Below, piece after piece: positions 3,503-57,593 of a stretch of 64,000 nucleotides of DNA. Origin of the DNA: Blasia pusilla. Its lineage: Eukaryota. The notes beneath the pieces were generated by a model. That model saw only the letters and a list, made by a program, of their open reading frames with translations, did no database searches and was not told the origin of the DNA. Position 1 is the first letter of the stretch. The number at the start of each line of letters is the position of its first letter. The stretch spans positions 47,864,001-47,928,000 of the forward strand of contig CM114271.1 in NCBI GenBank assembly GCA_050084515.1, given 5' to 3'. Position numbers and translations under genes: made by a program.

Positions 3503-3630
3503 TCTCGTGTGCATACACATCGCTACACAACAGACATTGCTGTCAATGATCATACATACAAACACGCACGATCCCATGCTAATTCATGGCATCCAAACAA
3601 CGAGACAAGAAGTACCAGAATATCTCCAAT
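3503..3630 (-). repeat. Terminal repeat segment A2 of copy 1 (~128 bp)
   Basis: Similar to 4152-4278, 47266-47393 and (inverted) 57604-57714, 58235-58362; core cacgatcccatgctaa.tcatggcatccaaa.aacgagaca...aatatctccaat. Confidence 0.9.
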
Positions 3631-4149
3631 AAAATAAGATCCAATCTCTCTCAACACCATAGCTCTCAAATGTGTGCGCTCTCACATGTCTCTCTCAATG
3701 TCAAACCAAACCAAACCCACTCTCCTAATTAGAGGCTTGGGTTACACTCACAAGGCAAGGGACCATAGCTCTGCTGCCTCGTGCCAAGAGGTTCAACAAA
3801 GAGAGAATGAGCTCTCAAGCTCTCTTTCTCTTGAAGGTATATTTGCTTCCCTCTCCCAAGCTCTCTCCTCGATAACCTATGCTTGTAGGTCATCTCCTTG
3901 TCTCTTGACTTGCTATAGCGGGTCAAGGGCCACTTCCTAAAGTGGAAAGTCAACTATACTCCAAATGTAAACTTACCCGAAATAATAATTTTCTCTATAT
4001 GGCTCCAAATGAGCCGAAACAAAGGGGAAACCTGCTCTCTCAAGTTACATGTGCCCTCAACAGGTCATCCTTGACCTCTTGAAGTTGTCCTCCAATATCT
4101 TCGAAGGCGCTCTACTAAATCTCGCTGATATATCCTAAAATCCGTGACA
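3631..4149 (-). repeat. Terminal repeat segment B2 of copy 1 (~520 bp, LTR body)
   Basis: Direct repeat of 14551-15063 (aaaataagatccaatctctctcaacacc...cctaaaatccgtgaca). Confidence 0.92.
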
Positions 4150-4151
4150 GT

Positions 4152-4278
4152 TGTCGTACACATACACATCGCTACATAACATACATCGTTGTCAACGATC
4201 ATACACACATCATCCACGATCCCATGCTAACTCATGGCATCCAAATAACGAGACAATAAATACCAAAATATCTCCAAT
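4152..4278 (-). repeat. Terminal repeat segment A1 of copy 1
   Basis: Direct repeat of 3503-3630; separated from B2 by a 2-bp spacer (GT, 4150-4151); directly follows the PPT on the minus strand. Confidence 0.9.
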
Positions 4279-4288
4279 CACCCCCCTA
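4279..4288 (-). promoter_or_regulatory. Polypurine tract (plus-strand primer) of copy 1
   Basis: Minus strand TAGGGGGGTG immediately before A1; copy 2 has TAGGGGGGCG at 57594-57603. Confidence 0.75.
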
Positions 4289-5898: not shown

Positions 5899-6700
5899 CT
5901 ATCGCCCCTCACCGGCCTCTAGATTGAAAGACTCTCCGTGAGACCTCGCCATCGAAGTTTCAATAATCTGGCTTTCCATAGCCAACAAGCCCAAATAGGC
6001 TGACGCGTGCCATCTTCGCACCAAATCCTCATCACTCTCACCAAGCCAACGAGTTCCAATCGCATCTCGCTCACTCAGGCATGGGTTACGGCTCAAACCA
6101 TCTTCATCTTGGTTGAGCATCCTAGGTCTATGCACCACTTGGAAGTCATACTCCTGCAACAAAAGAGCCCACCTCGCAAGCTTCCGTGTAAGCTTGTCGG
6201 ACTCCATCAACCACTTAAGTGGCTGATGATCACTAACGATGGTAAAGGGATTGCCGAATAAATAACACCTGAAATGTGCAATAGCCCACACCGTAGCCAA
6301 GCACTCACCCTCATACAAGCTATACTTTGCCTTTGCAGCGTTGTTCGAGCGACTAGCGTAAGCCACCACGAACTCTCTACCATCATTATCATGCTGGGTG
6401 AGCACCGCTCCAAGCCCCAGCACGCTCCAATCGGTATGAAACTGGAAAGGACACCCCTTGGTCGGTCTCCTCAATATGGGCGCGGATGTCAATCTATCCT
6501 TGAGTAGCTGAAATGCTCTCTCATGCTCATCCCCCGAGTGCCACTCCTAATCCACCTTGGTCAGCAAGGTTAGCGGCTTCACAATCGAACTGAAATCCTT
6601 GACGTACCGTCAATAGTAGTTCGCCAATCCCATGAATGCACAAACTCAACTCACATCTATAGGGCGTGGAAATATCTCCTCTAGATGTCACTCCTGCTCC
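5899..6700 (-). pseudogene. RT C-terminal remnant plus RNase H, copy 1
   Basis: TSAPIL...FQFHTDWSVLGLGAVLTQ...VVAYASR...YEGECLATVWAIAHFRCYLFGNPFTIVSDHQPLKWL...KLARWALLLQEYDFQVVHRP: Ty3-type RNase H. Confidence 0.92.
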
Positions 6701-7049
6701 TTGTCACTTGTGAGTAGCCGATAGGCTGAGATCTATCGTGGATAGGGCATAGGAGCCACTGGACTATCTTGAGTGTAACTTTGTCCCGCGGCGTTGGATG
6801 AGGTTGAGGATAGGTCCGTTGTGTCAGGAACGTTGTTTCTAACAACCTTCCTGTTGTGGTCTTTCATAGCCGGATGACTTGTTGAGCAAGTCACCCGTCC
6901 CTGGTAACATGTGCGCGCAGGTGGTGTGTCGATCTCCTCGGGTCTTGCCCCAAGCCACTGCCTCAACCCTCTCGGTAGGCATGGGACTCACCAATGCAAC
7001 AATTGTGATCTGTCGCATCCTCAAACGACGTTGTTGAGCTACTCCTAAG

Positions 7050-10913: not shown

Positions 10914-13900
10914 TCACTCTCAACTTTGCGAGTAATCATGCAACCACTCAATCTATCATGCGGCACTCAAGCTACACTCTCTCACTGAGACGTGTGCCAT
11001 GCGACAACAAGCGGAGTGGTGCGGCAAATTGTTTACTATCCTATCATCTCATCGACAGGACACATCCTCAACTCTGGACATCTCGCACAGGTCTATCTCC
11101 CCTACATCCATACATCATTGATGCTCTCAGCATCAGCACAAAACCCAATATCCCCAAATAACTTCCCAATACCCGGAAATCCCTAACACATGTAGGGCAA
11201 AAGACCAGAATGGGTAACCTGAATAAATGTTTGTGTCGCTCCTCAACAACTACAAAACCTACACCCCAACTCGGTTGTGGAGACAACTCCTCCAAATAGT
11301 ACGTCGTACTCCCGTGGTACTAACGGTGCTCCAAAACCTCTTCGATGTGCATTGCGGATCTAGCGATACGGTACGGCATTGGGTGGCACGGAACGGCTAC
11401 AAATGGCACAACACTAGGGAATGGGGTGCGGCACTCAGCGGCATATCCTCCTCAATAACAACATACACGCTCTGCTTCCACTGATGGTGCGGCTCAACAA
11501 TCGAGACAATGCGGTGAGGCGAGGAGCGGCATGACGCGACAATTCGTGGCGCGTTGCAGCAACGGGCGTCATGGCACGATACTCGATTGTCGTTGAGCGG
11601 TTGCCTCTACGGACATGGCAAAGCGGAAATGAAACTAGGACCCCATCAATTGACAAAAATCACCTACTATGCCGACGGCGTCCAGAATGAAATATGTCGT
11701 GGCGGTGTAAATCTCATAAATCACCCCATCAACGACCATCAATCCTAGCCGTCCAATTTGCGACAGCAAGAAACATTAGCCTGATAAGCGATGGCAGAGG
11801 TTTGGACGGATAGCGGTCACGTACCCAGACGGATGGTGCAGGTTGAACCGACGGCGTAGGCGCAAGCGAATGGCCGGCGGTCCATTGGCGGTTGCAAGAC
11901 TTTTAGGTCCGTAGCAAGCCCTAGTCGTTGCTCGAGCACGGGGCAGGCACGTCTATGACAGGGCGGAAGTGGTCGGGCTCGTCCGTGAGGGCCGAACTAG
12001 CCAGACCATATATAGCCATTGCAGCAAGCCACGTACGTATGTGGGGCATGGACAATAAAAGTGGCGATGCAGTGGGAGAGTAGTAGGCTAAGCCAGCTGA
12101 CCGCAGCGAAAGGATACTGAGTTGCTGCGAAGTCGGCGATAGCGTTTGGCTTCGTTAATCTGACTGGAGCGGGGCTGGTTGGGCGGTTGGGCCCAGTTGA
12201 ACACATAACATAAGTGGTAGTCGGGCTAGCTACGGATCGGGAAAGGGCCTGGCGACTGGTGGCGGCCGCACACGACGCGCGAGCGGGAAAATGGCGGGAC
12301 CACGTCAGGGCGGTCAGTATGGCAAAACATGGTCGGACACTACGGATGATTGGCTGCATCCGGATTGCACGGGGCAGTGGCATTCACGGCAACGTACGGA
12401 GCGGAAAGTAGCACGCCGGCGAGGCAGCATAGGGGTGACGTTGTCGTATAGTAAAATCAGCCAGTATAAACTCCGTCCTCATTAAGTGTTAGAAAAAATT
12501 TTATTAGTATTAAATAAATAAGCTTAAAAAAGAAAAATTCCCATATTTACACCTCTTTATGGTGTATTTTTTATACGGGTCCAACTTTAGGAAAAGAAGT
12601 AATAAATAAAAGATAACTTTATAAAAGTAAAGTAGTGACGTTAGTGATTTAATAAAAAGAAAAAGTAGTTCTGGTTGGTGGCTAGGGTAGTTGGGGTAAT
12701 TTGGAAAATATCAAGGGGATAAAAAAGGATATTTTGGAAGAGATAAAAGGAAATCTAGTTGTGTCAAAATGTGATTGGCTACGCCTTGAGAGGAAGTCAT
12801 GTGGCACAGGATAAGATTAGCTCTATTTCGTACTCTTGTGGATCCCTTGTGAGTATATAAAGAGGAGGGACCTTTAAGGGTTCATCACCTTCTATTTCAC
12901 ATCTTGAGTCTCTTGTGTTACTCTTGAGTGTATGGCTTTGGGATTCCTTGTTCTTCCAATGAGAGTGGATCATCCCTTTTGGGAGAGTAATTTGATCATG
13001 ATCTATTTTTTGAGAGGTTTCTAGAGTGTGGTGTGTGTGGAGATGAGAGGCTTGTCATCTTAGAGGAGTTTAGTCATACTAAAATAGTGAATGTTTTGGT
13101 TTGTTATTTTCCCAATGAAAGTGGATTAACCCTCTTGGGAGACTAACTCTACCAAAGCCCATTCTTGAAGAAAGTAGAGAATGTCTGTTAAGCATTGATA
13201 GGGATGGAGCACGAGTTGTGCCCGACTTTCCTTTCCTCAATCCTTATCATATCAAGGTACTCTTTGTAGATAGGCACTGGTTCACTCGCTATTTAGTTTA
13301 TCATTTTGGGGAGGCGTTCATGAACCAGGTCATGCAATCTCCAACTCCGGTGATTCTTCCTATCGTCACATATGGAAGGACATGGGATTGTACTTTGCAT
13401 GTCCTTGTATAGCAATCCATGGACGTCAATAGGCTCGCTCAAGTAGGGTTTAAGACTAGTTGCGCTATCTTCCTCGTGTACAAGCGTAAAAAAGTTTATG
13501 AGGATTTTATAGTTAGGAATTTTGGGGTCCGATGTTACGAAGAAATGATTGCCTCGGCACTTCCATTTGTGATACGTGTCGTGAGAGAATGGAGAGTATA
13601 CATAATAATTTTGTATTGAAAAAGGAGAACTTCTAAGAGAGTTTACCTTGCATCAACCACGTCTGCCGCGACTAGAAAGCCTGCCCTTACTCAAAGAAAG
13701 GCTCTCAACACGCCAACGTGGCGGGATTGGCGTGGCTAGTTCGAGTCGGCCCACTACAAATTTGGGAGGCTCCCAATCTCCTCCCCAATTTTATCTTCTT
13801 ACTAAATTACACCCTGAAAATACGGGTTTCTCTATTTTTTCCTTACTTGACTATCCCCCTTCTAACAGATTGCAATCTGAGGGCTTCTCCACAACTTTCA

Positions 13901-14534
13901 CCTAGACTTAAGGGTCAACAACCCCAAAAAAATTTTCAATCATTTTCAACACCCCACCAGCTCTTTCACTTGTCCTATCCACCAATAAACTAGTTTTTAT
14001 TTGTCTACCTATCACAAAGGATTTTTACTCAAGAATTTCGGAAATTTCACTCACACCATGGAACGGTGGCTATGGCAGACCTACGAAAATGATCGTAACT
14101 TCACGATAAATTGATCAAATTGCGCACCATTTCTTCCACATCCTGCATCGCTTCCAGATCTACATCAGCGTCAAATTAGGGACTGCCGTGCAGTCCAACG
14201 TCCCTTTCTCCTACACAAAATTTGGCAGCGCTTCGTGATGATTTCTTCCCAATAAAAATGTAAAACCTGTGAAAACACAAATCAGCAAGCTACATGGTGC
14301 TTTGGAGAGCACCGGTATGGGGCAACCCGCCCCCATACTCAATTCCTATCAGAAATTGGGCAGCGCTTCCACGTGCCACTCTCTTGTACAAAAATCAGCA
14401 AAAAAGAATAATAAACTCGCGCGGCTCTTGCTTCGGTGAGCACTCCCATGAGCCATGAAACGGGGAACACGGTCCCCCAACGTGCAACACACATCGAGCA
14501 ACCAGCGAGCTCCCCCATGAAGCTCTCTCATTCA

Positions 14535-38422: not shown

Positions 38423-39967
38423 ATTATTGTACTCATTAAGTAGTGCCTGTCGTAGCCTTGCGACCATAGACCCCGCGCCCTGGTTGGACGGTGCTTGAGA
38501 CTGGGATGGGTGTAGAGAGAGAAGCAAGTGAAGAAGGTACCATATGAGAGGAGGGAGACACTCTCATATAGTGTGAGTGCTGACCAAACAACGTGTTTGT
38601 GCGGAGCTTCCAAGTGTCAACCAAGAAACTCTTCACCACACCATCTACTTTACCTGATTGGGATCCCCAATAGACATTACTTACGGTCAGCAGCTTTGGG
38701 CAATGAATCAAGCCCTCATGAATGTGTTGAACAATTCTGGTGCTACCGACTTAGCAATATCAAAGATAAGCTCTTGCTCTGTGAGTTGTGAATTTTTGCG
38801 CAGAGACCAAGTAATGACTAGAGGTTTCATCCCCATCGTCACACAAGGCGCAAGAGTTTAGTTGTGTTCCCATCCTGCTTTTCTTATGGGTCAAGGGGAT
38901 TGCTCCCGTTCTGAACTTGAACTTGAGCCGGGTTCCCAAGCAAGGGGTTCCCCATAAATAGTTCTTGATTCGCCTTCTCGGGATATACCGTCAAAAGAGA
39001 GGTCGAGACATTTTCATGGCTTCCTCCATCTTTGTTCTCGCTGTGAGCGTTTGTCCACCGCTTTGGTTATGGTATCCACGAATGCTTTCTCATCTTGCTC
39101 CCACGATTCAGGCCCTGTTGGGAGCTTCAAGCTTGCACAATCTCTTGAACCTTTTTCGCCCAAGATTTGGCACGCTTTTACGGGTTTTTTGGGTCAGGTT
39201 TTCCCCATCACCTCTTTAGGATAGGGATGGGAGTCCATTGTCTCGATTGCCTCCGCCATTTCAACTTGGCAATGTCACGTCTATCCTCCAAGGGTTCCAC
39301 ACCTAGTTCTCGATCTCACACCAACTGGGCTGTTTCGTGATGAGGTTGACATCATACCCAAACGCCTTCAGGTTATGCGACTTCAAGCCTATCCCTTTGT
39401 TTGGTGTTGGCATCCCACACTGCTGCCCCGTATTCCAGCGAGGGACGAATGGTATGCAAAATGACAGAGCGCTTTACTTCTAATGAGATATCCCGGCAGT
39501 GTAGGAATATGGACAGACCGTTCACCTTCTTGTGGCCTTTCTCAGTAGTCTTCTTAATGTGTGCATCCCACATGCAATCTTCCAAGAATTCTATGCCTAG
39601 ATAGGTGTATGTAGCCACACAAGGGATCTCTTGTTCGCCCCAGTACCACTGTTGGTCTTGGTCCTCCTCCTTGCCATTGAAAATCATCACACTGCACTTC
39701 AGTACATTTGCCTCCATGCCCCACATATCACACCAAATTTTGGTTAGGGAGATCATCTCTTGGAGTTTCTCTCCTGTTTCCTCGAGGCCACCAAAGTCAT
39801 CAGCAAACATTAGGGCAACAACAGAGATGTTGCCCACCCGTATGCCTAGTCCACTATCCTCCATTTCTTCCAATAGGGAATTCACGAAAATGTTGAAGAG
39901 AGTGGGGGAGAGCGGGCATCCTTGAGCCACTCCTTGCTTGATGTCGAATGTCCCACTCTTTTGGCCA
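38423..39967 (-). mobile_element. 5'-truncated non-LTR retrotransposon (LINE), copy 1
   Basis: RT motifs AQGCPLSPTLFNIF, LMFADD, YTYLGI (ORF 39373-39930); downstream Cys/His motif; exact 11-bp TSD TGGAATGGGTA at 38412-38422 and 39968-39978. Confidence 0.92.
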
Positions 39968-39977: not shown

Positions 39978-39999
39978 AGAGAGAGAGAGAGAGAGAGAG
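39978..39999. repeat. (AG)11 microsatellite between the two LINE copies
   Basis: Directly visible. Confidence 0.95.
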
Positions 40000-40000
40000 T

Positions 40001-40993
40001 ACTCATTAAGTAGTGCATGTCATAGCCTTGCGACCATAGACCCCGCGTTTAGGACCATAGACCCTGATTGGACGGTGCGTGAGATTGGGATGGGTGTAGA
40101 GAGAGGAAGAGGTGAAGAAGGTATCATATGAGAGGAGGGAGACACTCTCATATAGTGTGAGTTCTGACCAAACAACGTGTTCGTGCGGAGCTTCAAAGCG
40201 TCAACCAAGAAACTCTTCACCACACCATCTACTTTATCTGATTGGGATCCCCAACAGACATTATTTACCAGTACAGCAGCTTTGGGCAATGAATCAAGGC
40301 TACTGAATGTGTTGAACAATTCTGGTGTTACCAGCTTAGCAATATCAACATATGCTCTTGCTCTGTGTTTTGTGAATTTTGCAGAGGAGACCAAGTAGTG
40401 ACTAGAGGTTTCATCCCCATCGTCACATAAGGCGCAAGATTTTAGTTGTGTTCCCATCTTGCTTTTCTTATGGCTCAAGGGGATTGCCCTCGTCTTGAAC
40501 TTGAACTTGAGCCAGATTCCCAAGCAAGGAGTTCCCCGCAAATAGTTCTTCAATTCTGCCTTCTCAAGATATACCATCAAGAGAGAGAGGTCAGACATTT
40601 TCATGGCTTCCTCCGTGTTGTTCTGTTGTGAGCGTTTACCTAATGCTTTAGTTATGGTATCCACAAATACTTTTTCATCTTGCTCCCGTAGTTCAGGCCC
40701 TACTGGGAGCTTGGATGCTTGCACAACCTCTTGAACCTTTTTTGTCCAAGATTTGGCCTACTTTACGTGTCTTCTTCGGGTCCAAGTTTTCCCCATCACC
40801 TCTTTTACAATCCAGCCATTTCAATGGGAATCCTCCAGGGTTTCCTAGTTTTGATCTCATACCAACTCAGGCTATTTGTGAGGAAGCTGACATCATACCC
40901 CGGAACACCTTCACCTCCACAGCTTCAAACCTGTCCCTTTGTTTGGTGCTCGCATCCTACAATACTACCCCATATTCCAGTGAGGGAGTGGTA
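40001..40993 (-). mobile_element. LINE copy 2, 3' part (interrupted by Gypsy copy 2)
   Basis: Similar to 38431-39454; encodes KSCALCDDGDETSSHYLV zinc motif; breaks at ...gagtGGTA|TGTTATC and resumes at 58363. Confidence 0.9.
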
Positions 40994-41473
40994 TGTTATC
41001 TCTTTTGGAGATCGGGAGATCTAGACTTAGGAGGTTGAGGTTGATGATGACTTCTTTGAGGCCCCGGGAAACCTGAGAGAGCAAGTTTCCCCTTCATTTC
41101 GGTTCATTTGGAGCCATACTGAAAAACTTACTTTTAGGTAAATATTATTTTGAGTATATGGTCAACTTTCTATTTTTGGTACGTGGCCCTTGACCTCCTA
41201 CATGAGGTCAAGAGCCAAGGAGATGACTTGGGAGCATAGGTTACCATGGAGAGAGTTTGGGAGAGGGGAGGGGTATCAGAGGGATATATCTGAGAGAGCT
41301 TGAGAGCTCATTCTCTCTTTGTTGAACCTCTTGGCATGAGGCGGCGGAGCTATGGTCTTGGTTGCCTTATGTGTATAACTCAAGCCTCTCATTAGGAGAG
41401 AGGGTTTGGTTTGACTTTGAGAGAGATATGTGAGAACTATGGTGTTGTGAGAGAGATTGGATCATATTTTACA
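40994..41473 (+). repeat. 5' terminal repeat B1 of copy 2
   Basis: Direct repeat of 57717-58234; TGTTATCTCTTTT...ATATTTTACA. Confidence 0.9.
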
Positions 41474-41486
41474 AAGAGAGAATGAG
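41471..41486 (+). promoter_or_regulatory. Self-priming-type primer-binding site, copy 2
   Basis: ACAAAGAGAGAATGAG is the perfect reverse complement of CTCATTCTCTCTTTGT at 41307-41322 inside B1; no TGG/tRNA-type PBS present. Confidence 0.72.
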
Positions 41487-42899
41487 TGAGTGAGAAAGCT
41501 TCATGGGGGAGCTCTCTGGTCACTCACTGGTTTTGCAGGTTGCGGATCCGATTCCCCATTCAGCGGTTGATGGGAGAGCTCACTTGTAAGAGCCGCTTAC
41601 TTGTGATGTTTCATTTGCCAATTTTTCGTGTGGAAGAGTGGCACGCGGAAGCGCTGCCCAATTTTTTATAGGGATTGAGTATGGTGGCGGGTTGCCCCAT
41701 GCCGATGCTCTCAAGAGTACCATGTATCTTGCTGATTTGCATTTTTACAATTTTTACATTTTCATTGGGAGAAATTAGCACGGAAGTGCTTCCGAATTTT
41801 GTGTAGGAGAAAGAGACGTTGGGCTTTACAAAAGTCCCCATCAGTTTTTACTGGAATATTCAATTTCAAATATTTTTTAATATTGTTGTACATCTTGAAG
41901 CTATGCATATTGTGCAACAAATGGTGCACAATTTGGAGTTGTGAGCAAAAATTTATGGTCAATCTTGCAAAACTGCCATTGCTAGGCGATTTTTAGGGTT
42001 AAATTGTTCAAACCCTAAACCAGCCGCCATGCCGGCGGCAACCGTCGCCATCATAGTCACCGTCAACGGTCCGCCATCAATGGTAAACTATCACCGTCAC
42101 CATCAATGGTCAACCATCACCGTCCATCGTCATCATAGTTTCATTATCAACCAGTGATGGCGGATGATCTTGGGTTATGGCGTTTGAGTTTTCATTTCAT
42201 GCTGCTATGTTGTGATTGGTAGCGGCTCGACGACGATCGAGTATCGTGGCGTGATGCCTATAGCGACAATGCACCGCCGATTGCCGCCCCGTGCTGCTCA
42301 TGGCCGCACCACATTGTCTCGATCACGGAGCCGCTCCTTCACTAAGGAGCAAAGCGTGTGAATTTCTGATTAAGGAGGGTATGTCGCCAAGTGCCGCACC
42401 CCATTCCCGAGTGTCGTGCCGTTTGTAGCCGTTCCATGCCGCCAGTCCCGCACCGGATTGTTGGACCTGCACCGCACATTGAGGAGGTTTGAGTAGCCTT
42501 AGTATGAGAGGAGTACGACTTGCCGATCGGAGGAGTTGTCTTCACGACAGAGTTGGGGTCAAGATTTGCAGTTGCCGAGCAACGACATCGATATTATTGT
42601 CAGGTTACCGATTCTAGTCTCTCACCTTGCACGAGTGAGGGATTTCTAGGTATTGGGAAGTTATTTGGGATATTGGATTTTTTGCTGATGCTAGGAGCAT
42701 CGATGATGTATGGGTTTAGGGGACATAGACGTGTGTGATATGTCCAAAGTTGAGGATGGTTTGTCGATGAGACGATAGATCAATGATTTGCCGCACCACG
42801 CTGCTTATTGCCACACAACACACGTCTCAATGAGAGAGTGTAGATTGAGTGCCGCATGTTTAGTTTGAGTGATTGAGGGATTATTCGTGAGATTTAGAG

Positions 42900-45030
42900 T
42901 GATCATGTGAGAGGGGCACGAGGGCCATCACGGCATCCTTTCGGGATTTTAAGAGGCGAGGTAGTGGACCTGAGAGTAGCTCCGGAGGGTTTACGCAGAG
43001 TGGTGCGAGGTTTCAAGGGTCTCCACGTGAGAGATCACCTCAATCTCCTTCTGTGTCATCTTCAGACGAGGGAGAGCGTGTAGAGGAGTGTGTTAGTGAT
43101 CCACCGTACACATTGAGTGGTCCTACCAGTTGGGCGTACGAGATGGACGACTGCGGTAGAGGTCTGCGTAGGTTTTCGGGTGTTGTAGGCACTATAGAGC
43201 TACATGACTTCATTGCGGAGTTTAGGAGTTGGTGTGACTCACAGCGGGCTAGGAGCTCTAGAGATTTTAACCCGTTTATAGCATGGAATGGTATGTTCCA
43301 TCATTTAGAGGGAGCGCCCATGGATGATAACCATGAGTTCTCTTATAGATATGCATAGGAGATTCAAGCATGGAAACTCTAGTATGACCCACACAATGTG
43401 TCATGGACGGAGCGGTTCTCAGATGAGGAGGAGGAGTCAGGAGAGGCTACTTCCTCTTCCATTAGTGATGTTTTAGGAGTGGTCACTCACACTGGAGCAG
43501 TTGCACTATCTAGTCGGGTTCGTCCCAGGTTCAACCCTGTGGTTAAGTTCTTCACTCAGTTGAGGGCGAGCTACCAAGGGGTATGGACAGAGAGGTTGCG
43601 GAGCATCCACGACTTTCTGAGGCGCCCGGGTTAGATTTTGCATGAGGCTTACACTCGCTTGCGCCGGTTGATCAACGTCACTCAGGGGATGACAGAGGCT
43701 CAGGCTATCCAATCATGAAACGCGATGCTGGACCGGACCCTGCGGATACAGGTGCAGGAAGGGATGCTTCTTATGAACACCTCCCCTACGATGAGAGATT
43801 TTTTAAGGACGGCCAAGAACATTGAGCGCAACATGGCAGATGAGAGTGTAGCCACTATGGGTTCTGGGTGAGAGCACTCACGATTGTCTGCACCACCAGT
43901 GCAGCAAAGTGGACTCCGAGATAGGTCGACTATGGCACCACGAGCTCACAGAGGATACCAAGAGACCGTGCCACTGAGATCTGTGCCTTCATATGTGGCT
44001 CAGCAGTAGCTGCCTACGATTACTTGTTGGTCATGTGGTGGAGCCCATCATCAGCGTGATTGCACTCGTCAAGGACATGGACGTGTGCCTCAGAATGGCC
44101 GAGGAGATGGTGTTGCACCAAGAGGTTATCAGTATGACTATTGTCAGAGGTATGATCACACACGCTCTAGGTGTTTCAGTTTACATCCGGACCGAGGGCC
44201 AGAGAGGACACCAAAGCGAGTAGCCGGTCTGGGTGGGCTAGAGATCGTGCATCAAGTGGTCCCGTTGGGGGACGAGGAGCTGGAGTTGCCCGACAGGGTG
44301 GTGGAGCTGCTCATGGAGGAGGTAGAGTCCCACCACCTAGATGCATTGAGAAAGGCGCCGGGCGTGAGGTTGGGATGGTTGCTCAGATACAAGTTATGGC
44401 ATTGAGGTTACCCGATGCCCGATCCGTGGCATCGATATCATTGGTTGGATGTGCGGTGTTGCCTAGATGGAGGCCGCCGCAATTATGACGTATGGAGCAA
44501 CCACAGACTTGGATGCACATTGAGGGGAAGCCAGGAAATAGATGAGGCTTCCTCAATCTTTCACGTTTTCCGAGGCGATGAGGACCCCATCGATGGGTCC
44601 TGATCAAAGTTCCTAGAGAGTTGGTGATGTTGTTTGTGTAGGCACGTAGGGCAATGGGAGAAGCAAGTGCGACGACTCCTATTGCTGATGCTAAGGAGGG
44701 GCATATATTGAGCACGTTGTTGGGGGCGGCCATCGTTGTGTACCGCGCTCCTTTATTTTCTGCTTCCGATGTTATGACGTCGGGAGGTACGCCCGCCGAG
44801 GTTTTTCGACTAGCCGCTACGCTATGTGAGCGTGGAGTTGGAGTTTATGCATCATGTTCAGAGGTGATTGCAGAGGAGATGATGGACCTGCCCTTGGAGC
44901 TGATGCTCGGGCCGTCCCTTTCAGATTCAAGGCAGACTGCAGCTGCTAGGATGGCCGAGATGCCCGCTAGATCCGCGATAGAGCCTTCCATGGCTTCTCC
45001 TGGTGTTGTTTTGTTGGATAACCAGGGAGA
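42900..45030 (+). pseudogene. Gag, copy 2
   Basis: RRFSGVVGTIELHDFIAEFRSWCD; knuckles TCWSCGGAHHQRDC and YDYCQRYDHTRSRC; many stops and frameshifts. Confidence 0.78.
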
Positions 45031-45039
45031 GATCTTCTA

Positions 45040-45470
45040 GTTGGTGAGTCTAGGAGGTAGATCTTTTAGTCCGTAGCGCGTCTTGTTGGATTCATGAAGG
45101 CAATCTCTAATGTTGGGGAAAGCGTCATTTAGAGGATTGGGCTTGACGAGAGCGGATATGGAGCATTGCCCATTCTGGATACAGACATCCTTGGGTGGAG
45201 TGAGTACCACACAGTATATCACCCGACAAGAGGTCGTGGTGGGGATTCACCCGGGACATCCTACAGATGAGTCCCTGGTGCGAGCCAAGGCGATAGTGAT
45301 TGATGCAAAGTCCTACGACGTCTTGGTTGGTGGAGCAGTGTTATACCCGATGGAATTTTCCCTGGATTACTGGGAGGAGGCAGTGTCCTATACACCAAGA
45401 TGGCAGTCAGGTGATGGGCGCCTCAGCTCATTACCCGTTCGATTCACAAGTGCACTAATCGAGCCAAAAG
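45040..45470 (+). pseudogene. Aspartic protease, copy 2
   Basis: VLLDS*RQSLMLGK...SYDVLVGGAVL. Confidence 0.8.
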
Positions 45471-45789
45471 AGATGGCGACCTTAGCACCATTTAGCAGTG
45501 CCATCACTTGGCCTAGTGATTTGATTGAGGGACATGTCCATACAGAGGATACTCTTGTTCTTGACATGTCTAGGGATAGGAGTGTTATGGTAACCGCATC
45601 ATTCCGTGGAGGAGAGGTGCCGTTGTGGGGCTTGAGTGAGGAGCTTCGACGTTTATCTGATGAACATGTGCAAACCGCGTGGAATAAGGCGTTTGCACCA
45701 GAGCATGACGGGTCAGAGGAACCAGAGGTAGCCAAGAGTGCTGCTATGACCCCTTTGTACACCACCTCGATTGTATGGTGCATCCCAAC

Positions 45790-46720
45790 AGAAGGGTATT
45801 CGTGTGCTGGATCTCTTTGGAGGGATCAATACTCGTTTAGCTGATGTTTTGCAGGCAGGAGTACCTATATGTTGAGATTGATAATGTTTTGAGGCGCGCT
45901 TCACTTCACCATGTGGCGTAGTGACTAGTTGTCTACGTTTGCCATTCAGGGTTACCAGAGTTCCCTATCAAAATACATTTCATTATTGGGGGCGCAGGAC
46001 TTGGAGCAGGTGGGATCCCATAGACGTGGTCATTGCTGGTTGGCCAGGTCAGGGCCAGTCAAGTGTTGGATGAGGTAGCGGGTTTTCTGACACTCATTCC
46101 AGGTTGTTTTGGGAGATGATGCGGATCTTATGACATTTTAAGGAGCATTAGCCCCTATCTCCAGCATATATTTTGGAGAATGTGCCAATTTTGGGTGATT
46201 CGAGGCCCGTGTGGTGACGAGTGCACATCAGGTACTCGCATGGATTGGCCCGGAAGTGTTGTCAGATGCGGCGAGTGTAAGTTCTAGAGCACCATGCCCG
46301 CGTCTTTGGTGGACCAACTTGGTACCACATGAGGTATTGTGGAGGGCATATGCGAGAGTGGGGTGCCCCTCTGATTTGTTGGTGGATTCTATATTGGATC
46401 TGGGCCGTCGATCACAGGCAATGAGACACAATGATCAAACGCCGTTGACTGTTGTCAACGGGATTGGCATGCCACGAGCAGCCTTTCCCACATTAGTGAG
46501 TTTTCCCGCTTCCTATGCATTCAAGGAGGCTAGACCTGGCTTGGTTTGGGATGACCAGGTACAGAGGTTGGTGGAGCCCAACGCCGATGAGCAAGAGCGA
46601 GTGATGGGACTCCCCATAGGAGTGACGGCAGTATCGTCACTATCGGAGGCATTACAAGGTCATGTCTTGGGTCAGGCGATAGACTTGAACTACTTGACAT
46701 GGATTTTTAGCTTAGGAGTA
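45790..46720 (+). pseudogene. DNMT3-type cytosine-5 methyltransferase domain, copy 2
   Basis: EGIRVLDLFGGINT; IDVVIAGWPGQGQS (Cys to Gly); AYILENVP; SSRAPCPRLWWTNL; EPNADEQERVMGLPIGVT; HVLGQAIDLNYLTWIF. Confidence 0.88.
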
Positions 46721-47265
46721 GCTAAGCAACATCATTTGAGGATGCAACAGAGCACAAAAGTTGCGTTGATGAGCCCCATGCCTACCGAGACGGTTGAGGC
46801 ACTGACTGGGGGCGAGACCCTAGGAGATTGACACACGAGGGGTGATCGATAGAGACACCCTTGGACTTCTAGGGATATTTTGCAGGTACGCCAAGAGATG
46901 ATAGCCACAGCATCGAGCATGGTTCCGGGTACTGCAGGTGAAGATGAGAGTTCTAATTTCCGAGACGGGGTTGCACCATAGCAACCACTGACATCCGCGC
47001 CAGAGAGTCCTACCGTAGTCACGATGGAGACTTGGGAGCCAGATATGGGCCCTAAGTTGACAGGAGGAGAGCGGCGTCGCAAACACCAGTTCCTTAGGAG
47101 TTATAGGAGTTGTTTTGCATTTAGTATGCATGATTTGGGTACGCTGAAGGGTTGAGGGATCCGCATTGAGTTTTCAAGTGACACGCCGATCTTTCGACGA
47201 TCCTATAGGTACAGTGACATGGAGAGGGCTTTGATTCAGAGTTGGAGCTAGGACTTGGTTGGAGT

Positions 47266-47393
47266 TGTTGTGCGCATACACATCACTACACAACATACAT
47301 CGCTGTCACCGAACACACACACAAACACGCACGATCCCATGCTAACTCATGGCATCCGAACAATGAGACAAGAAGTACTAAAATATCTCCAAT
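47266..47393 (-). repeat. Terminal repeat segment A of copy 3
   Basis: Similar to 3503-3630 and 4152-4278. Confidence 0.9.
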
Positions 47394-47687
47394 TTACTAA
47401 TATGAAGGTACTCCAAGACTACTCCATCATCATAAATATCTCGGCCACTTTTCATCTCCTCATTGGCATCGGGATCCAAGGACTCTCCACTAGACTTCGC
47501 CATCAAAGTCTCCACTCTGGCTCTCCATAGCCAACATGCCTAAATAGGCTGATGCGTGCCATCCTGGCACTGACTCCTCATCACTCTCTCCATGCCATCG
47601 AGCTCCCGTCGCATCTCGCTGACTTAGGCATGGGTTACGACTCAACCCATCTGCATCTTGGTTGAGCGTCCCAGGTCTATGTACCAT

Positions 47688-48958
47688 CTAAAAATCATAC
47701 TCCTGCAACAATAGAGCCCATCTTGCAAGCTTCCTTGTAAGCTTGTCGGACTCCATCAACCACTGAAGTGGTTGATGCTTAGTGATGATGGTAAAGGGGT
47801 TTCCGAATAAGTAACAATTGAAATGCGCGATAGCCCATACGACAGCCAAGCACTCACACTCATACGAGCTGTACTTCGCCTCTGCAGTGTTGTTTGAGCG
47901 GCTAGTGTAAGCCACCACAAACTCTCTACCCTCATCATCATGTTGGGTGAGCACCGCTCCAAACCCCAACATGCTCCAATCTGTGTGCAACTGGAAAGGA
48001 CACCCCCTAATCGATCTCCTCAAGATGGGCGCAGACGTCAACATGTCCTTGAGCAATTGAAATGCTCGCTCCTGCTCATCCCCCAACGCCACTCATGATC
48101 CACCTTGGTCAGCAAGGTCAGCGGCTTCACAATCGAACTGAATCCCTTGACGTACCACCGATAGAAGTTCGCCAATCCCATGAATGCGCAAACATGGCTC
48201 ACGTCTGTAGGGCATGGAATGCGTGAGATAGCCTCTACCTTCGTCTGATGAACACCAAGGCCCCTTGGGTATATCGTATGACCCAAGTACTCAATCTGGT
48301 CATAAAAGAACTTGCACTTTCCTGGATGTAGCTTCAGCCCATGTAATTGCAATCGTCAAAACACCTCCTCTAGATGTCGCTCATGCTCCTCAACCGTGGC
48401 GCTAAAGACTACAATGTCATCAATACAATACCTAGCAAAATCCACACCAGCCAAGATCCTATCCATGATCCTCTGGAACTCAGTCGGGGCGTTCTTTAAC
48501 CCAAATGGTAAGAACCGCCACTGATACAAACAATCCTTCCCGTGAGGGTCGATGCCCCAAAATTCCGTCTTCTGCTTGTCCTCCAATCTGATAGGCAGCT
48601 GATGGTATCCGGCTCGTAAATCCAATGAATTGAAGACCTTTGTGTGACCAATCGCATCAAAGATCTCCTCAAGGGTGGGCATGGCATACCTAACGGACTT
48701 CATCTGCCGATTGATAGGTCGGTAATCCCCACACATCCGCCTATCCATCCAGTTTCCATGCACATCCTTCTTGGCAGGCATGATAGTGGCAAATGCATAC
48801 TCCCCATGCGACATCTCTACTAGTCTTGCTCCAACCAAGTCTTGGCTCCTACTCTGAATCAGAAGCCTCTCCATATCACTATACCTGTAGGATCGTTGGA
48901 AGATCGGCGTATCACTTGAAAACTCAATGCGGATCCCCGGTCCCTTCAGCGTACCCAA
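47688..48958 (-). pseudogene. Reverse transcriptase plus RNase H, copy 3
   Basis: RRMCGDYRPIN...SLDLRAGYHQL...LPFGLKNAPTEFQR...YCIDDIVVFS...KCKF...YLGH...FMGLANFY; RNase H FQLHTDWS...ECECLAVVWAI. Confidence 0.93.
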
Positions 48959-49224
48959 TCCTCCATGCTAAATGCAAAGCAGCTCCTATAACTCCTGAGG
49001 AACTGCATGTGGAGAAGATCAGAGTTTGCACTTGGCTGCAGGAGAGTGGTCGAGTGTCGTTGTTCGAGATGGGGTTGCACCATAGCAACCACCAATATGT
49101 GCGTCGGAGAGTCCTACCATAGTCACGATGGAGACTTGGGAGCCAAATATGGGCCCTAAGTTGATAGGAGGAGAGCGGGGCCGAATACATCACTTCCTTA
49201 GGAGTTATAGGAGCTGCGTCCTCC

Positions 49225-49800
49225 GTAACACCGCATGAGGCACTAAGTTGGTCCACCATAGACGCGGGCGATGGGCTCTAGAACCTACACTCACCGCATC
49301 CAAGAATAATGCTCGGCCAATCCAGGCACGCACTTGATGAGCACTCGTCACCACCCGTGACCTAGAGTCTCCTAAGATCGGCACATTCTCTAGAATGTAG
49401 GCTGGAGAACGAGACTGGTGCTCCTGCAAGTGCCGTAAGACCCTCAACATCTCCCAAAACAACCTGGAATGAGTGTCATCCAACCCGTTGCCTCGTCCAG
49501 CGCTCGATTGGCCTTGACATGGCCAATCGGAAATGACCAAATCAATGGTCCCTACCCGCTCTAAATCATGCGCCCCCAGCAACGAAATATCCCTTGGTAG
49601 GGAACTTTGGTACCCTGTATCGCGGACGCAAACAATAAGTCGGGAAAACGTAGGCGTAATAGCGCCACATAGCGTAGTGAGACGCGCCTCGCAATATCAT
49701 CACTCTCCACATACAGTTACTATTGCACTTGCACTCCTACCTACAAAACAGCAGCTAACCCGGTGCTAATCCCTCCAAAAAGATCAAACACTCAAATACC
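49225..49800 (-). pseudogene. DNMT3-type cytosine-5 methyltransferase, motifs I-VIII, copy 3 (C-terminal part deleted)
   Basis: EGI*VFDLFGGISTG...LYVESD; ORF 49205-49582: IDLVISDWPCQGQSSAG..GLDDTHSRLFWEMLRVL...YILENVP...DAVSVGSRAHRPRLWWTNL. Confidence 0.9.
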
Positions 49801-50139
49801 CTCCTCCGGGATACACCACACAATGGGTGTGGTATCCAAGGGTGTCATCCTAGCACTCCCAGCTACCTTGAGTTCCTTAGACCCGTCACGCTCCGATGCA
49901 AACGCCTCGCTCCACGCGGTTTGCACGTGCTCATCTGCCAATCATCGAAGCTCCTCACTTGAGCCCCACATCGGCACCTCTCCTCCATGGAATGATGCGG
50001 CTACCATAACACTCCTCTCCATAGAAATGTCAAGAATGGGAGTATCCTCTATATGGATATGTCCCTCAATCAAATCACTAGGCCAAGTGATGGCACTTCT
50101 AAATGCTGCTAAGGTTGCCACCTCTCCTGGCCGTCGCTC

Positions 50140-52570
50140 AATCACTGCACATGTGAATCCAACGGGTAATGAGCTAAAGCACCCATCACCTTACTGCCAT
50201 CCCAGTAATCCAGGGAAAACCCCATTGGTTATAACACTGCTCCACCAACCAAAATGTTGTAGGACTCTGCATCAGTCACTATCGCCTTGGCTCGCACCAC
50301 GGACTCATCTGTAGGATGTCTTGGGCGAATCCTCACCATGACCTCCTGTCGGGTGATATACTGTGTGGTACTTGCTCCACCCAAGGATGGCTGAATCCGA
50401 AATGGACAACGCTCCACATCGGCTCTTGTCAATCCCAATCCTCTGAATGACGCTTTCCCCAACATCAAGGGTTGTGCTCCTGAATCCAACAAGACGCGTT
50501 ACAGACTAAAAGCTCTACCTCCGAGACTCACCAACTGGAAGACCGCTTCTTGGTTATCCAGCAACATAACACCAGGAGAAGCCATGGCACGCTCTATCGC
50601 GGGTCTAGCGGGCATCTCCGCCATCCTAGAAGCCGGAGCCTGCCATGAATCTGACGTGGACGGCCCGAGCATCCACTCCAAGGGCAAGTCCATCACCTCC
50701 TCTGCAATCACCTCTGAACGTGATGCAGGAACTCCAACTCCGCGCTCACATAGTGAAGCGGCCAGCCAAAAAGCCTCGGTGGGCGTACGCCCCAACGTCA
50801 TAACATCGGTAGTAAAAATTAAAGGAGTGCGGTACACAACGGTGGCCGCCCCCAACAACGTGCTCGACACATATCCCTCTTGAGCATTAACAATAGGAGT
50901 TGTCATACTCGCTTCTCCCATCGCCCTCCATGCTTGCACACCAACAACATCACCAACTCTCCAAGAACTCTCATCAGGACCCATCGATGGGGTCCTCATC
51001 GCCTCGGACAACTTGAAAGACTGAGGAAGCCTTCCCCTCGCTGTGGATCCAACTCTGCGGCTGCTCCATGCATCACAAATGCGGCTTCCTCCATTGGGGC
51101 AACCCCGCACATCCAACCAGGATCCTCCAGATCTGTGGCTGCTCCATATGATGTCGATGCCACCGATCCGGCATCAGGTAACCTCAATGCCATAATGGCA
51201 ATCTGCTCTTGTAGCTGTTGTATCTGAGCAGCCATCCCAGCCTCTTGTCTGGTGTCTCCCTCGGCGCGTCTAGGTGGTGGTACTCTACCTCCTCCATGGA
51301 CAACTCCACCACCGTGTCGGGCAACTCGAGCTCCTCATCCTCCTTTGACCACCAAGTGCACAATCTCTAGGCCCACCCGGACCGGCTACTCGCTCTGGTG
51401 CCCTCTCTGGCCCTGGTCCGGACATAACTCAAGATGTAAACTAAAACACCTGGCACGTGTATGACCATACCTCTGAAAATAGTCACACTGATAACCTCCT
51501 TGTGTAGCACCATCTCCGACTTCCTGTATCCTCCTTGAGCTCGTGGTGCCACAGTCGACCTATCTCGGAGTCCACGTTGCTGCACATGTAGTGCAGGCGA
51601 TCGTGACTGCTCTCGCCCACAACCCATGGTGGCTACGCTCTCCTCCACCATGTTGCGCTTAGTGTTCTCGGCGGTCCTTAAAACATCTCTCAACGTAGGG
51701 GAGTTGTTCATAAGAAGCATCCCCTCCCGCACCCGTGTCCGCAGGGTCTGGTCCAACATCGCGTGCCATGACTGGATAGCCCGAGCCTCTGTCATCCCTT
51801 GGGTGACGTTGATCAACTAGCGCAAGCAAGTGTAAGCCTTATGCAAACTCTCACCCGGGCGCCTCTAGAAGTCGTGGATGCTCTGCAACTTCTCCGTCCG
51901 TACCCCTTGGTAGCTCGCCCTTAACTCAGCAAAGAACTCAACCACGGGGTTGAATCTGGGACAAACCCGACTAAACGGTGCACTTGCTCCAATGCGAGTG
52001 ACCCCTCCTAAAACATCACTTGTGGAAGAGGAAGTAGCCTCTCTTGACTCCTCCTCCTCATCTGGGAACGGCTCCGTCCATGACACATCGTGTGGATCAT
52101 AGTAGAGCCTCCACGTCTCGATCTCACGTGCATATCTCTGAGAGAACTCATGGTAATTGTCCATTGGCGCCCCCTCTAAATGCTGGAACATAACCCGTTC
52201 CATGTTGTAAACGGATTGAACTCTCTAGAGTTCCTAGCCCGTTGGGAGTCGCACCAACTCCTAAACTCTGCTATGAAATCGTGCAACTCAATCATGCCTA
52301 CTGCACCTAAAAACCTACGCGGTCCTCTACCCCAATCGTCCATCTCGTATGCCCAACTGGTAGGACCACTCACAATGTGTGGCGATGTGCTCACAAACTC
52401 CTCTACACGCTCCCCCTCGTTTGAAGAGAACACAGAAGGGGGTCGAGATGGTCCCTCACGTGGAGACCCTCGAAACCTTGCGCCACTCTGCATAAAACCT
52501 CTAGAGCTACTCTTTGGTTCACCACCTTGCCTCTCAAAGTCCCGAACCGACGTCGTGATGACCCTTGTGC
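50140..52570 (-). pseudogene. Gag and protease, copy 3
   Basis: PRRFLGAVGMIELHDFIAEFRSWCD...; LLDSGAQPLMLGK...YNILVGG. Confidence 0.82.
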
Positions 52571-54199
52571 CCCTCTCACTCGATCACTCTCAACCTCGCG
52601 AGTAATCCCTCAATCACTCATCCCAAACATGCGGCACTCGATCTACACTCCCATTCCCTGAGACGTGTAACGTGCGGCAACAAGCGGCGTGGTGTGGTAA
52701 ATTGACCAGGCTATCATCTCATCGACAACCTACCCTCAACTCCGAACATCCCACACAGGTCTATATCCCCTAAACCACATACATAAATGATGCTCTCAAC
52801 ATCCACAGAATCCAATATCCCCAAATAAACTACCCAAATCCCAGAATCCCTCACGAGTGCAGGGTAAAGGACCAGAATGGGTAACCTCAACACATGTCGA
52901 TGTCGCTCCTCAGCAATTGCAAATCTTAACCCCAACTCAGTCGTGGAGGAAACTCCTCCAATCAGCAAGTCATACTCCTCCCACACTGACGCTGCTCAAA
53001 ACTCCTCGATAGACAATGCGGTTCCAGCGAAACGGTGCGGCGTTGCAGGCTGCACGGAACGGCTACGAACGGCACAATCCTTGATGGTGGGATGCGGCAC
53101 TCGGCGGCATATCCTCCTCAATCAAAAATAAACCCACACTCTGCTCCACAATAACGGTGGGACTCCGCGATCAAGACAGTGCGGTGCGGCCATGAGTGGC
53201 ACAGCGCGGCAATAGGCGGCGCATTGCGGCTACGGGCATCATGGCACGGTACTCGATCGTCGTTGATCGGCTACCAATCATTACATAGCATCATGAAATC
53301 AAAACTCAAACATCCTAATCAGAGGTCATCTGCCATCCCTGGTTGACGACAAAACTTCAATGACGTGGCGGCCAAAATAAAGTACGTGGTGGCGACGCAA
53401 GTCAGAGACTCAATGAACGTCGTGGAAGACCCTCCACTCCCTAATGGCGGCAATGGCAACCAAAGGGTGGACAACGGTCGAATATGGCTCTAAGCAACGT
53501 TGGGCAATAGCAACGGCCGACGGTGGCCGGTGGACGGTGGACGGTGGACCATTGACGGTGATGGTTGACCGGTGATGGTGATGACGGACCGTTGATGGTG
53601 ATTTTTGACCGTTGACCATGACCGCCGCCGGCGTGGCGGCTGGTTAAGGGTTTGAACAATTTAACCCTAAAAATCACCTAGCAATGGCAGTTTTGCAAGA
53701 TTAACCATAACTATTTACTCACAACTCCAAATTGCACACTATTTGTTGCACAACCTGCACAGCTTCACGATCTATGACGGCGTCAAAAAATATTTGGAAT
53801 TGGACATTCCAGTAAAAACAGACAGGGATTTTTGTGAAGCCCAATGTCTCTTTCTCCTACACAAAATTTGGCAGCGCTTCCGTGCTGATTTCTCCCAACC
53901 AAAATGTAAAGCCTGTAAAAATAGAAATCAGCAAGCTACATGGTGCTCCCGAGAGCACCAGTATGGAGTAACCTGCCCCCATAATCAATCCCTATCAGAA
54001 ATTGGATAGCGCTTCCGCGCGCCACTCTACCACACAAAAAATCGGAAAATGCAAAGAACAATCAAAGCAACCCTTGCTCCGGTGAGCACTCCCATGAGCC
54101 GTTGAACAGGGAACACGGTCCCCAACCTGAAAAAATAGCAAGTGACCAGTGAGCTTCCCCATGAAGCTCTTTCACTCTCTCATTCTCTCATTCTCTCTT

Positions 54200-54717
54200 T
54201 GTAAAGTAAGATCCAATCTCTCTCTACACCATCTCACACCATAGCTCTCAAAGGTGTGCACTCTCTCTCTCATGTCAAACCAAACCCACTCTCCTAATGA
54301 GAGGCTTCCGTATCACTCACAAGGCAAGGGACCATAGCTCCGCCGCCTCATGCCAAGAGGTTCAACGAATAGGGAATGAGCTCTCCAGCTCTCTCTCCTT
54401 GAGGTATATCCCTCCCCTCTCCCAAGCTCTCTCCGTGGTAACCTATTCTCCCAAGTCACCTCCTTGGCTCTTGATCTGATGTAGAAGGTCAAAGGCCACT
54501 TACCAAAAATAGAAAGTTGATCATAAACTCAAAATGGTACTTACCTAAAATAGTAAGTTTCTCAATATGGCTCCAAATGAACCGAAACGAAGTGGAAACT
54601 TGCTCTCTCAGGTTTCTCGGGGCCTCAGTAGGTCATCCTCGACCTATTGAGCTTGTCCTCCACTACTCACAAAGGTGCTCAACTAGATCTCACCGATCTA
54701 TCCTAAAAGACATGACA
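54200..54717 (-). repeat. 5' terminal repeat B1 of copy 3
   Basis: Similar to 14548-15063; inverted relative to 40994-41473 and 57717-58234. Confidence 0.9.
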
Positions 54718-54721
54718 GAGC

Positions 54722-57270: not shown

Positions 57271-57279
57271 GCAGGCTTG

Positions 57280-57420: not shown

Positions 57421-57593
57421 TAGAGTAGGTAGTTCTATATTTTGACTTGTATCTATGATATGGATGACAAGAAGGCAACTAACGATGGGGCCACATGAGC
57501 ATCCAACCTTCTTACTCTTAGCGTCTGAAAGATGTATGTCATGGTAGGTAGGGATAGATGGCTATCTGGAGTTAGAGGGACCTAACCACGAGC

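Follow-up and report, generated by a model that had tools for sequence, protein, structure and literature searches.

The closest described system to the element reported here is KnitGypsy-Dnmt3 of Klebsormidium nitens, which the legend to Fig. 4c of de Mendoza et al. (2018) presents as a combination of DIRS-like repeats with Gypsy domains (PMC5890265). The main text of that paper mentions no borders, target duplications, primer binding site (PBS), polypurine tract (PPT), palindrome or mechanism for the element, and in the portions of the literature covered by our search we found no other description of the layout and no published mechanism beyond the remark in the legend. Self-priming of reverse transcription, as outlined by Neumann et al. 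(2019), is known from Tf1/sushi and has been predicted for Tcn1 elements of mosses and club-mosses (PMC6317226), while the integrases of prototype foamy virus (PFV) and human immunodeficiency virus type 1 (HIV-1) are reported to cleave the palindromic junction between two long terminal repeats (LTRs) at internal positions (Delelis et al., 2005, 2007; PMC1180852, PMC1905944). The locus described here is a 64-kb stretch of Blasia pusilla DNA (contig CM114271.1, positions 47,864,001 to 47,928,000 of the forward strand), hereafter the window. It holds a Ty3/Gypsy retrotransposon whose Pol combines a C5 DNA methyltransferase with a DDE integrase and a PHD finger, and whose two repeats, B and A, are split so that B stands alone at the 5' end and A-B-A at the 3' end. 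The reading that we favour, with moderate confidence, is that the ends of its cDNA are joined, B end to A start, and that the integrase cuts a palindrome inside the LTR.

Three copies of this one family were identified when the window was compared with itself, and their layouts are based on this self-BLAST together with junction read-outs and exact coordinates. Copy 1 (15063-3503) lies on the minus strand, as do all of its features, in the order B1, PBS, gag-pol, PPT, A1, a 2-bp spacer, B2 and A2. Its 5' target duplication, TAAG (15067-15064), is followed by B1, the 5' end of the element, which starts TGTCACGG (15063-14551), a 16-nt PBS of self-priming type, ACAAAGAGAGAATGAG (14550-14535), and a body of broken coding segments (14534-4290). 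The PPT, CTAGGGGGG (4289-4281), and the bases TG (4280-4279) stand directly 5' of A1 (4278-4152), which runs from ATTGGAGAT to ACGACA. After the spacer AC (4151-4150) come B2 (4149-3631) and A2 (3630-3503), whose final letters ACGAGA form the 3' end of the element ahead of the 3' target duplication TTAG (3502-3499). Within copy 1, B1 and B2 are 90.2% identical, and A1 and A2 87.4%.

Copy 2 (40994-58362, plus strand) has the same order and is split by copy 3. Its 5' part, up to the insertion point of copy 3 (40994-47264), holds B1 (40994-41470), the PBS (41471-41486) and the gag, protease and methyltransferase region; its 3' part (54722-58362) holds the reverse transcriptase (RT), RNase H, integrase and PHD finger, followed by the PPT (57593-57601), A1 (57604-57714), a GC spacer (57715-57716), B2 (57717-58233), one extra A (58234) and A2 (58235-58362). 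The B...PPT-A-B-A layout that a preliminary description of this DNA had proposed for copies 1 and 2 is therefore confirmed by self-BLAST, junction read-outs and exact coordinates. Copy 3 (54717-47266, minus strand), nested inside copy 2, has B1 (54717 to ~54203), a PBS (from 54202 downward) and a single A (47393-47266). A deletion took its integrase, A1 and most of B2, leaving 10 nt of the B2 end before the A, so that copy 3 is a deletion derivative of the A-B-A layout; we had considered it as a one-LTR product, which this remnant and the missing integrase rule out. The borders first proposed for all three copies, B start and A end, thus stand, with the qualification that the third is a deleted A-B-A copy with one A.

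All window copies open with TGT at the B start and close with ACA at the A end, or with AGA in copy 1. For two of them the window also contains a paralogous empty site. That of copy 3, TTGGAGC/AAGAC (the slash marking the insertion point), is filled as GAGT-element-GAGC, a duplication also written GCTC/ACTC. That of copy 2, GGTA/TGCAAAATG, lies at 39420-39500 on the plus strand in a repeat termed X, and is filled as GGTA-element-AATA-TGCAAAATG, with target duplications at 40990-40993 and 58363-58366 (plus strand). Repeat X is a direct repeat of ~1 kb (86.8% identity; 38429-39670, 39999-40993 and 58367-58582), the second copy of which was the insertion target of copy 2. The 4-bp target duplications of copies 2 and 3, with later substitutions, are thereby proven, as the preliminary description had held of these degenerate duplications, and their agreement with the empty sites indicates that the borders at the B start and the A2 end are right.

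Relatives of the element were sought with a profile of the methyltransferase region, which yielded 142 confirmed stretches in metagenome contigs. Eighty loci (given L numbers) were kept and classified by self-comparison and by BLAST with A and B queries, and once duplicates were removed, 21 5' ends and 18 3' ends counted as independent. The loci form a family related to that of the window, with a B of ~340 bp and an A of ~115 bp. The full order B...A-GC-B-A is present in L062, L064 and L072, the 3' A-B-A in L020 and L034, and a partial layout in L002, which meets the contig end, and L080, which has a 28-nt deletion across the palindrome. Nine relatives hold both ends. Their target duplications lie just outside the B1 start and the A2 end, and are perfect 4-bp duplications in five: L062 (CATA), L064 (TCTC), L019 (TACA), L037 (TGTT) and L057 (TGTG), the last counting as perfect only if its mutated start is accepted. 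There is one mismatch in L073 and L058, there are two in L048, and L072 is ambiguous, the first nine bases of its B being unrecognisable. The layout recurs in independent metagenome copies with perfect target duplications and is not due to chance.

These borders bear on the simplest alternative, a canonical Gypsy element with B alone as its LTR, A1 as 3' untranslated sequence and A2 as a later duplication or an independent short element. No direct repeats are longer than B1 and B2, which standard tools would call LTRs, but the target duplications and empty sites put the 3' border after A2 rather than B2, the PPT adjoins A1 and not B2, and A-B-A recurs in independent copies of two families. Moreover, an A with duplications of its own never stands alone in the window or the 80 loci, an inverted A in L015 (= L029) being the exception, and we regard this alternative as very improbable. 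The inverted A in question (L015 6011-6126; L029 6021-6136) is a lone one, ~4 kb upstream of the methyltransferase match, and sits where B1 would be expected. Judged against the usual description of Metaviridae, the element has the short target duplication (4-5 bp; 4 bp here), whereas identical LTRs bounded by TG..CA at both ends are absent: the 5' end is B alone and the 3' end A-GC-B-A, and TG..CA bound the whole element, not its single repeats.

The signals for reverse transcription place the LTR differently from the insertion borders. In the window family, B is followed by 16 nt that are exactly complementary to CTCATTCTCTCTTTGT, a site inside B that lies 165 nt before the B end in B1 of copy 2 and ~180 nt before that end in the B2 of copies 1 and 2. 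Pairing is perfect in copy 2, as it is between the copy 1 site and its B2 (3811-3796); B1 of copy 1 has one mismatch. In the metagenome family the 12 nt abutting B (ACTCAAAGAACT) are the exact complement of a different sequence, AGTTCTTTGAGT, 170 nt before the B end; in L037/L036 the pairing is perfect, and in L073 it extends over 10 nt. Complementarity has thus been kept at the same two places in two families while the sequences differ, and this covariation shows the site after B to be self-priming, like that of Tf1. The majority sequence of 24 metagenome B copies keeps the self-primer, ~30 nt downstream of TATAAA, and in B1 of copy 1 a TATA-like AAATATAC stands ~30 nt before it, near 14726; the complement of the PBS is the predicted 5' end of the transcript. 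A tRNA-type PBS was also considered: the TGGGGGAGCTC motif lies ~37 nt after B and does not abut it, and it was dropped given the self-priming complement, so that an earlier view of the PBS as a tRNA site is corrected, on the strength of these pairings, to one of the self-priming type. In the majority B of the metagenome family, at ~155-180, a PBS-like CTCAAAGAAC also occurs just upstream of the self-primer, with which it makes a short inverted repeat at the predicted transcript start. At the other end of the body, CTAGGGGGG(T/C)G adjoins the A start in both families. Since the PPT adjoins A and B ends at the PBS, the LTR of the cDNA must be A, spacer and B, and the sequences support A+GC+B as the unit of reverse transcription, in keeping with the A+B first suggested.

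The insertion ends lie inside this unit. The border between A and B reads ...ACGACA-nn-TGTCACGG in the window family and ...CACGACA-nn-TGTCATGACC in the metagenome family, the spacer nn being GC in four of eight copies, AC in three and AT in one. Every variant is a transition away from GC, giving a consensus palindrome of 10 bp, GACAGCTGTC (GACA-GC-TGTC); in copy 1 this internal att site survives as GACA-AC-TGTC at the A1/B2 border (4155-4146). The integration ends TGTC...GACA are therefore found within the cDNA LTR, as the preliminary description had placed its TG/CA att pair (at GACA-NN-TGTC, with NN now refined to a consensus GC), and the two central bases are missing from integrated copies. 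No copy made use of the outer cDNA ends: A-GC upstream of B1 is absent from all 21 independent 5' ends and from the three window copies.

If the minus primer is removed at the PBS edge and the plus primer after GGGGGG(T/C)G, the predicted cDNA ends are ...TATTTT and ATTGGAG... in the window family and ...CATTTTC and AGTTGTGG... in the metagenome family. The B/A joint in the 3' repeats was compared with these ends in nine independent cases. It is an exact fusion of B end to A start in five (L062, L072, L020, L034 and copy 1, at 3631/3630), and holds one extra A in window copies 2 and 3. In L064 there is a 17-nt filler, partly repeating the B end, plus the CG that stands just before A at the PPT, and in L017 (= L038) 12 nt of PBS sequence (11/12 nt) plus GCT. 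The additional bases derive from both primers, as on unprocessed cDNA ends, and the joint is on this evidence made from cDNA ends. It was formed anew in different insertions and was not copied through RNA. Copies of A1 and A2 form a star around a single consensus, which is consistent with a joint made anew; separate A1 and A2 lineages, with A2 inherited through RNA, were looked for and not seen. The earlier proposal that B2/A2 joins the termini of the cDNA is upheld by the five exact joints, and the heterogeneity it anticipated there appears in the other four (extra A twice, the L064 filler and the PBS copy of L017); the closed circle that it invoked is hypothetical.

Among the 18 independent metagenome 3' ends, 12 carry a single A (B-body-PPT-A, with 4-bp duplications). 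One-LTR products of this form had been predicted and are indeed common, but they are equally explained as deletions between A1 and A2. Such copies may have arisen by later A1 x A2 deletion, or they may be primary products, from the cutting of both palindromes of a linear cDNA or of the one palindrome of a one-LTR circle. A deletion of another kind occurs in L058 (7302/7303) and L032 (4605/4607), which are independent of one another; both have lost internal sequence, and in each the deletion stops on its right side precisely where A begins, which gives the A start the look of a free or landing end. L041 was examined as a third instance and ruled out, as part of its PPT is retained. The 3' region of L017 (12383-13279; = L038) is rearranged and its RT truncated, the order after the RT being an inverted B fragment (142-246), an inverted body segment of 458-468 nt, B 180-339, the 12-nt PBS, GCT and A; it looks like an aberrant product of reverse transcription.

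From the layout, termini, target duplications, PBS, PPT, palindrome and variable joint of these copies we infer a joined intermediate that the integrase cleaves at the palindrome. The replication signals are of conventional kinds. Transcription would start in B, driven by the TATA box, ~170 nt before the B end, and the first 12-16 nt of the RNA would fold back onto the site adjoining B, in the manner of Tf1 self-priming. Reverse transcription would yield a linear cDNA with A+GC+B as its LTR. The integrase would ignore the outer ends and use the TGTC...GACA ends within the LTR palindrome. For a replication-competent copy, the cDNA ends would have to be joined head to tail, by ligation into a two-LTR circle or by template switching from end to end; cleavage of one palindrome, with loss of the central GC, and a target cut staggered by 4 bp would then give an insertion with a 4-bp target duplication and the structure B-PBS-body-PPT-A-GC-B-A. 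Cutting without a joint, from linear cDNA or a one-LTR circle, would give B-body-A, a product that lacks terminal redundancy and so should be dead on arrival. A stronger form of this proposal is that the lineage integrates obligatorily from head-to-tail joined cDNA, with the two-LTR circle as the productive form and the DDE integrase cutting the palindrome internal to the LTR. We consider this stronger form possible but doubtful. If true, the split-direct-repeat layout would be a general footprint of integration from a circle junction, and each genomic copy a fossil of integrase acting on an LTR-LTR junction in vivo.

Several observations weigh against a joined intermediate cut at the palindrome. 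No circle or concatemer was observed among the genomic copies, and a closed circle and a tandem extension by RT would leave the same joint. A two-LTR circle contains two equivalent palindromes, so that the permutation B-A-B-body-A should be as frequent as the one found; contrary to the prediction of the preliminary description, it is absent from all 21 independent metagenome 5' ends and all three window copies, against at least eight copies of B-body-A-B-A. This permutation may be missing because closely spaced repeats of 340-520 bp collapse more quickly, or because extension is asymmetric and confined to the right-hand end. If the single-A copies, the majority among 3' ends, are primary products, insertion mostly leads to a dead end. 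The B repeats of these copies show, on average, slightly more divergence than B1 of A-B-A copies (4.1-10.4% compared with 4.2-8.6%; small samples with overlapping ranges). The copies examined are all old (B1/B2 identity 86-94%) with broken reading frames, and an exact PBS-B complement of at least 8 nt is absent, through decay, in six of the 12 elements tested. Lastly, the L017 joint is not a clean case because of the inverted segments in its rearranged 3' region.

Much of this would also follow from the same att site without any closed circle. The integrase would then cut the palindromes of linear cDNA endonucleolytically, giving B-body-A by default, and the master form would arise when RT, having reached the right end, switches to the left one and extends through a further A or more (115-128 nt) ahead of cleavage. 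Such a scheme explains the frequent B-body-A copies (12/18), as well as the absence of B-A-B from all 24 5' ends, for extension on the left must cross a whole B (340-520 nt) whereas on the right only A is needed. The breakpoints of L058 and L032 at the A start also look like landing points, and exact and primer-copy joints fit template switching and ligation equally. The 17-nt filler of L064 and the GCT of L017, however, are more like end joining, and the scheme calls for a hypothetical removal of 117-nt and 342-nt tails by the integrase. We judge this account unlikely, though far from negligible, and retain the joining of cDNA ends followed by cleavage at the palindrome as the preferred reading.

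The coding content was examined by Pfam scans of 38 open reading frame (ORF) pieces and proteins, the scans covering ORFs and not six frames read across stops. Domains found were DNA_methylase, RVT_1, RT_RNaseH, Integrase_H2C2, rve and a C-terminal PHD finger, and window copies 2 and 3, like L062, have RVT_1, RT_RNaseH, Integrase_H2C2 and rve in this sequence, the Pol order of Ty3/Gypsy elements. The DNA methylase (PF00145) matches copy 3 at 49696-49208 on the minus strand (E 5.7e-10), and lies upstream of RVT_1 in L002 and in Marchantia proteins. Its translation contains PCQ and ENV, which we take to be methyltransferase motifs. Other segments lie, in copy 1, at 7896-7672 (C5 DNA methyltransferase-like), 6546-5902 (RNase H) and 5608-4931 (integrase), all on the minus strand and accompanied by broken gag and protease-like segments; in copy 2 at 56375-56704 (integrase, plus strand); and in copy 3 at 48967-48359 (RT, minus strand), together with gag, protease (DSGA) and RNase H. 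Stop codons are frequent in the window copies, which are old and broken.

A DIRS/Ngaro/PAT-type element that integrates a circle by means of a tyrosine recombinase would account for the split direct repeats, and the repeats of the Klebsormidium relative have been called DIRS-like in a figure legend (PMC5890265). It is nevertheless exceedingly improbable here: none of the 38 ORF pieces and proteins matched Phage_integrase (PF00589) in the ORF scan, while H2C2 and rve are present, and target duplications of 4 bp, like ends in TG..CA, are the mark of a DDE integrase. The assignment to a DDE integrase rather than a tyrosine recombinase, already made in the preliminary description, agrees with both results.

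No chromodomain match was obtained at the integrase C-terminus in the Pfam scans. This terminus is a PHD finger (PF00628; E 2.7e-08 in L062, 13022-14143; window 57109-57390, in copy 2 on the plus strand), which may guide target choice. The methyltransferase piece is 66-73% identical to proteins of Marchantia polymorpha and Calypogeia fissa, with weaker matches in Sphagnum and Closterium, and several of the matched proteins combine PF00145 with RVT and RNase H domains; these matches point to a bryophyte-like source genome. Two proteins, P0039 (2015 aa) and P0040 (2021 aa), are long polyproteins without interruption in which RVT_1, RNase H, H2C2, rve and PHD are all present, and they share 33-35% identity with the methyltransferase region of Marchantia; given these, more distant relatives may be intact.

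Reads of the same species label, ~1% of one genomic run and three RNA runs, were mapped on copy 1 at 85% likeness. DNA depth per 400-nt bin, with both mate orientations summed and over the family parts, was ~90 to ~2770 and mostly ~400 to 2770, which shows the family to be very abundant in the source species. At the A2 end, 1195 DNA reads run on into unlike flanks (agreement 0.39), as at a true terminus. The RNA, if the usual library orientation is assumed, is almost wholly from the sense strand. It covers the body, PPT and A1 (~98-171 per bin) and B2 (48-80), and falls to ~17-24 on A2 after scaling for the flank in that bin, ~3-5 times less. A few molecules end 15-76 nt before the B2 end (7 and 8 molecules, from one run). 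This thin evidence fits transcripts that stop inside B2 and do not carry the B/A joint. Several read joints between B1 and B2 coordinates were attributed to cross-mapping between diverged B copies and discarded as real junctions.

Two parts of copy 1 are foreign to the family. At 6672-6923 the core of the RT has been swapped for ~250 nt that cannot be aligned to copies 2 and 3; the piece starts with TGTCAC straight after host ...CCTGCTCC, near the site of copy 3 in copy 2, and 131 + 69 DNA reads connect an A end with 6701/6702 on the opposite strand. The piece may come from a nested member of a subfamily whose B differs, but 6702-6923, when tried as a B fragment, aligns poorly to B (scores 35-44). 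The stretch ~11600-14188 is a foreign repeat, absent from copies 2 and 3, in which RNA reads at 12122-13725 are on the strand opposite to the rest of copy 1, and it is probably another repeat inserted in reverse orientation. In the 24 metagenome B copies, substitutions from the majority are mostly transitions (for example 26/26 in B1 of L057 and 31/33 in B1 of L073), and the same bias is visible in read differences. Decay driven by methylation of cytosines would fit this pattern, and the element codes for a cytosine methyltransferase of its own.

The practical consequences begin with annotation. LTR finders will call B1 and B2 as the LTRs, missing A2 and the true target duplication, and will miss all B-body-A copies because these have no terminal repeat. 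The family is common in bryophyte-associated metagenome contigs (142 confirmed stretches). More broadly, the split-direct-repeat architecture is seen here not to depend on a tyrosine recombinase, which alters how it is read in DIRS, Ngaro and PAT elements. Whether retroviral-type integrases make productive use of LTR-LTR junctions in vivo has been argued for decades; if the genomic copies do record the joining of ends and the cutting of an internal palindrome, as we favour, a single enzyme and a single site of 10 bp would be enough to test the matter.

Compared with KnitGypsy-Dnmt3 as its legend describes it, the element shares a Gypsy-type Pol with a C5 DNA methyltransferase domain and the order of one repeat, the coding region, then the other, the first and the other again (PMC5890265). 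The hosts differ, the best protein matches of the window element being to liverworts and Sphagnum, and no Klebsormidium protein was among the matches in word-based protein searches. The window element is thus a bryophyte relative of the KnitGypsy-Dnmt3 kind, likened to it by described features and not by sequence kinship. The layout itself, on a Gypsy element, was therefore already on record in that legend, which weakens the claim to novelty; of the mechanism we found no published description in the literature as far as our search covered it. New as well are the proof of 4-bp duplications at the two outer borders (B start, A end), the site for self-priming, the palindrome built into the LTR, the variation that primer-derived bases bring to the B/A joint, and the many copies with no terminal repeat at all.

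With the DIRS order (PAT, Ngaro, TOC1) the element has in common, going by the same legend, one repeat at the 5' end and other-first-other at the 3' end (PMC5890265). In both, the layout implies that an intermediate, joined or circular, was opened where two repeats meet internally. DIRS-order elements encode a tyrosine recombinase and are not known to make a target duplication, whereas the window element has H2C2 and a DDE integrase, TG..CA ends and 4-bp duplications. A functional likeness, and only a functional one, exists with the copy-out-paste-in elements IS3, IS911 and IS30, in which a DDE enzyme acts on abutted ends with a 2-3 bp spacer at a circle junction; these are bacterial DNA elements without reverse transcription. 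The feature in common with Tf1/sushi and Tcn1 is a PBS complementary to the transcript start, although these, as characterised by Neumann et al. (2019), have ordinary identical LTRs and usually a chromodomain, in contrast to the PHD finger and permuted repeats found here (PMC6317226). The nearest chemistry is that of PFV and HIV-1, where, in the experiments reported, a retroviral-type integrase cuts both strands of a CA..TG palindrome to give processed ends, so that the cleavage proposed here has precedent (PMC1180852, PMC1905944). In those viruses the palindrome exists only after the ends have been joined, and the pathway is described as accessory or disputed. In the window element, by contrast, the palindrome is built into each LTR, and the genomic copies record its use.

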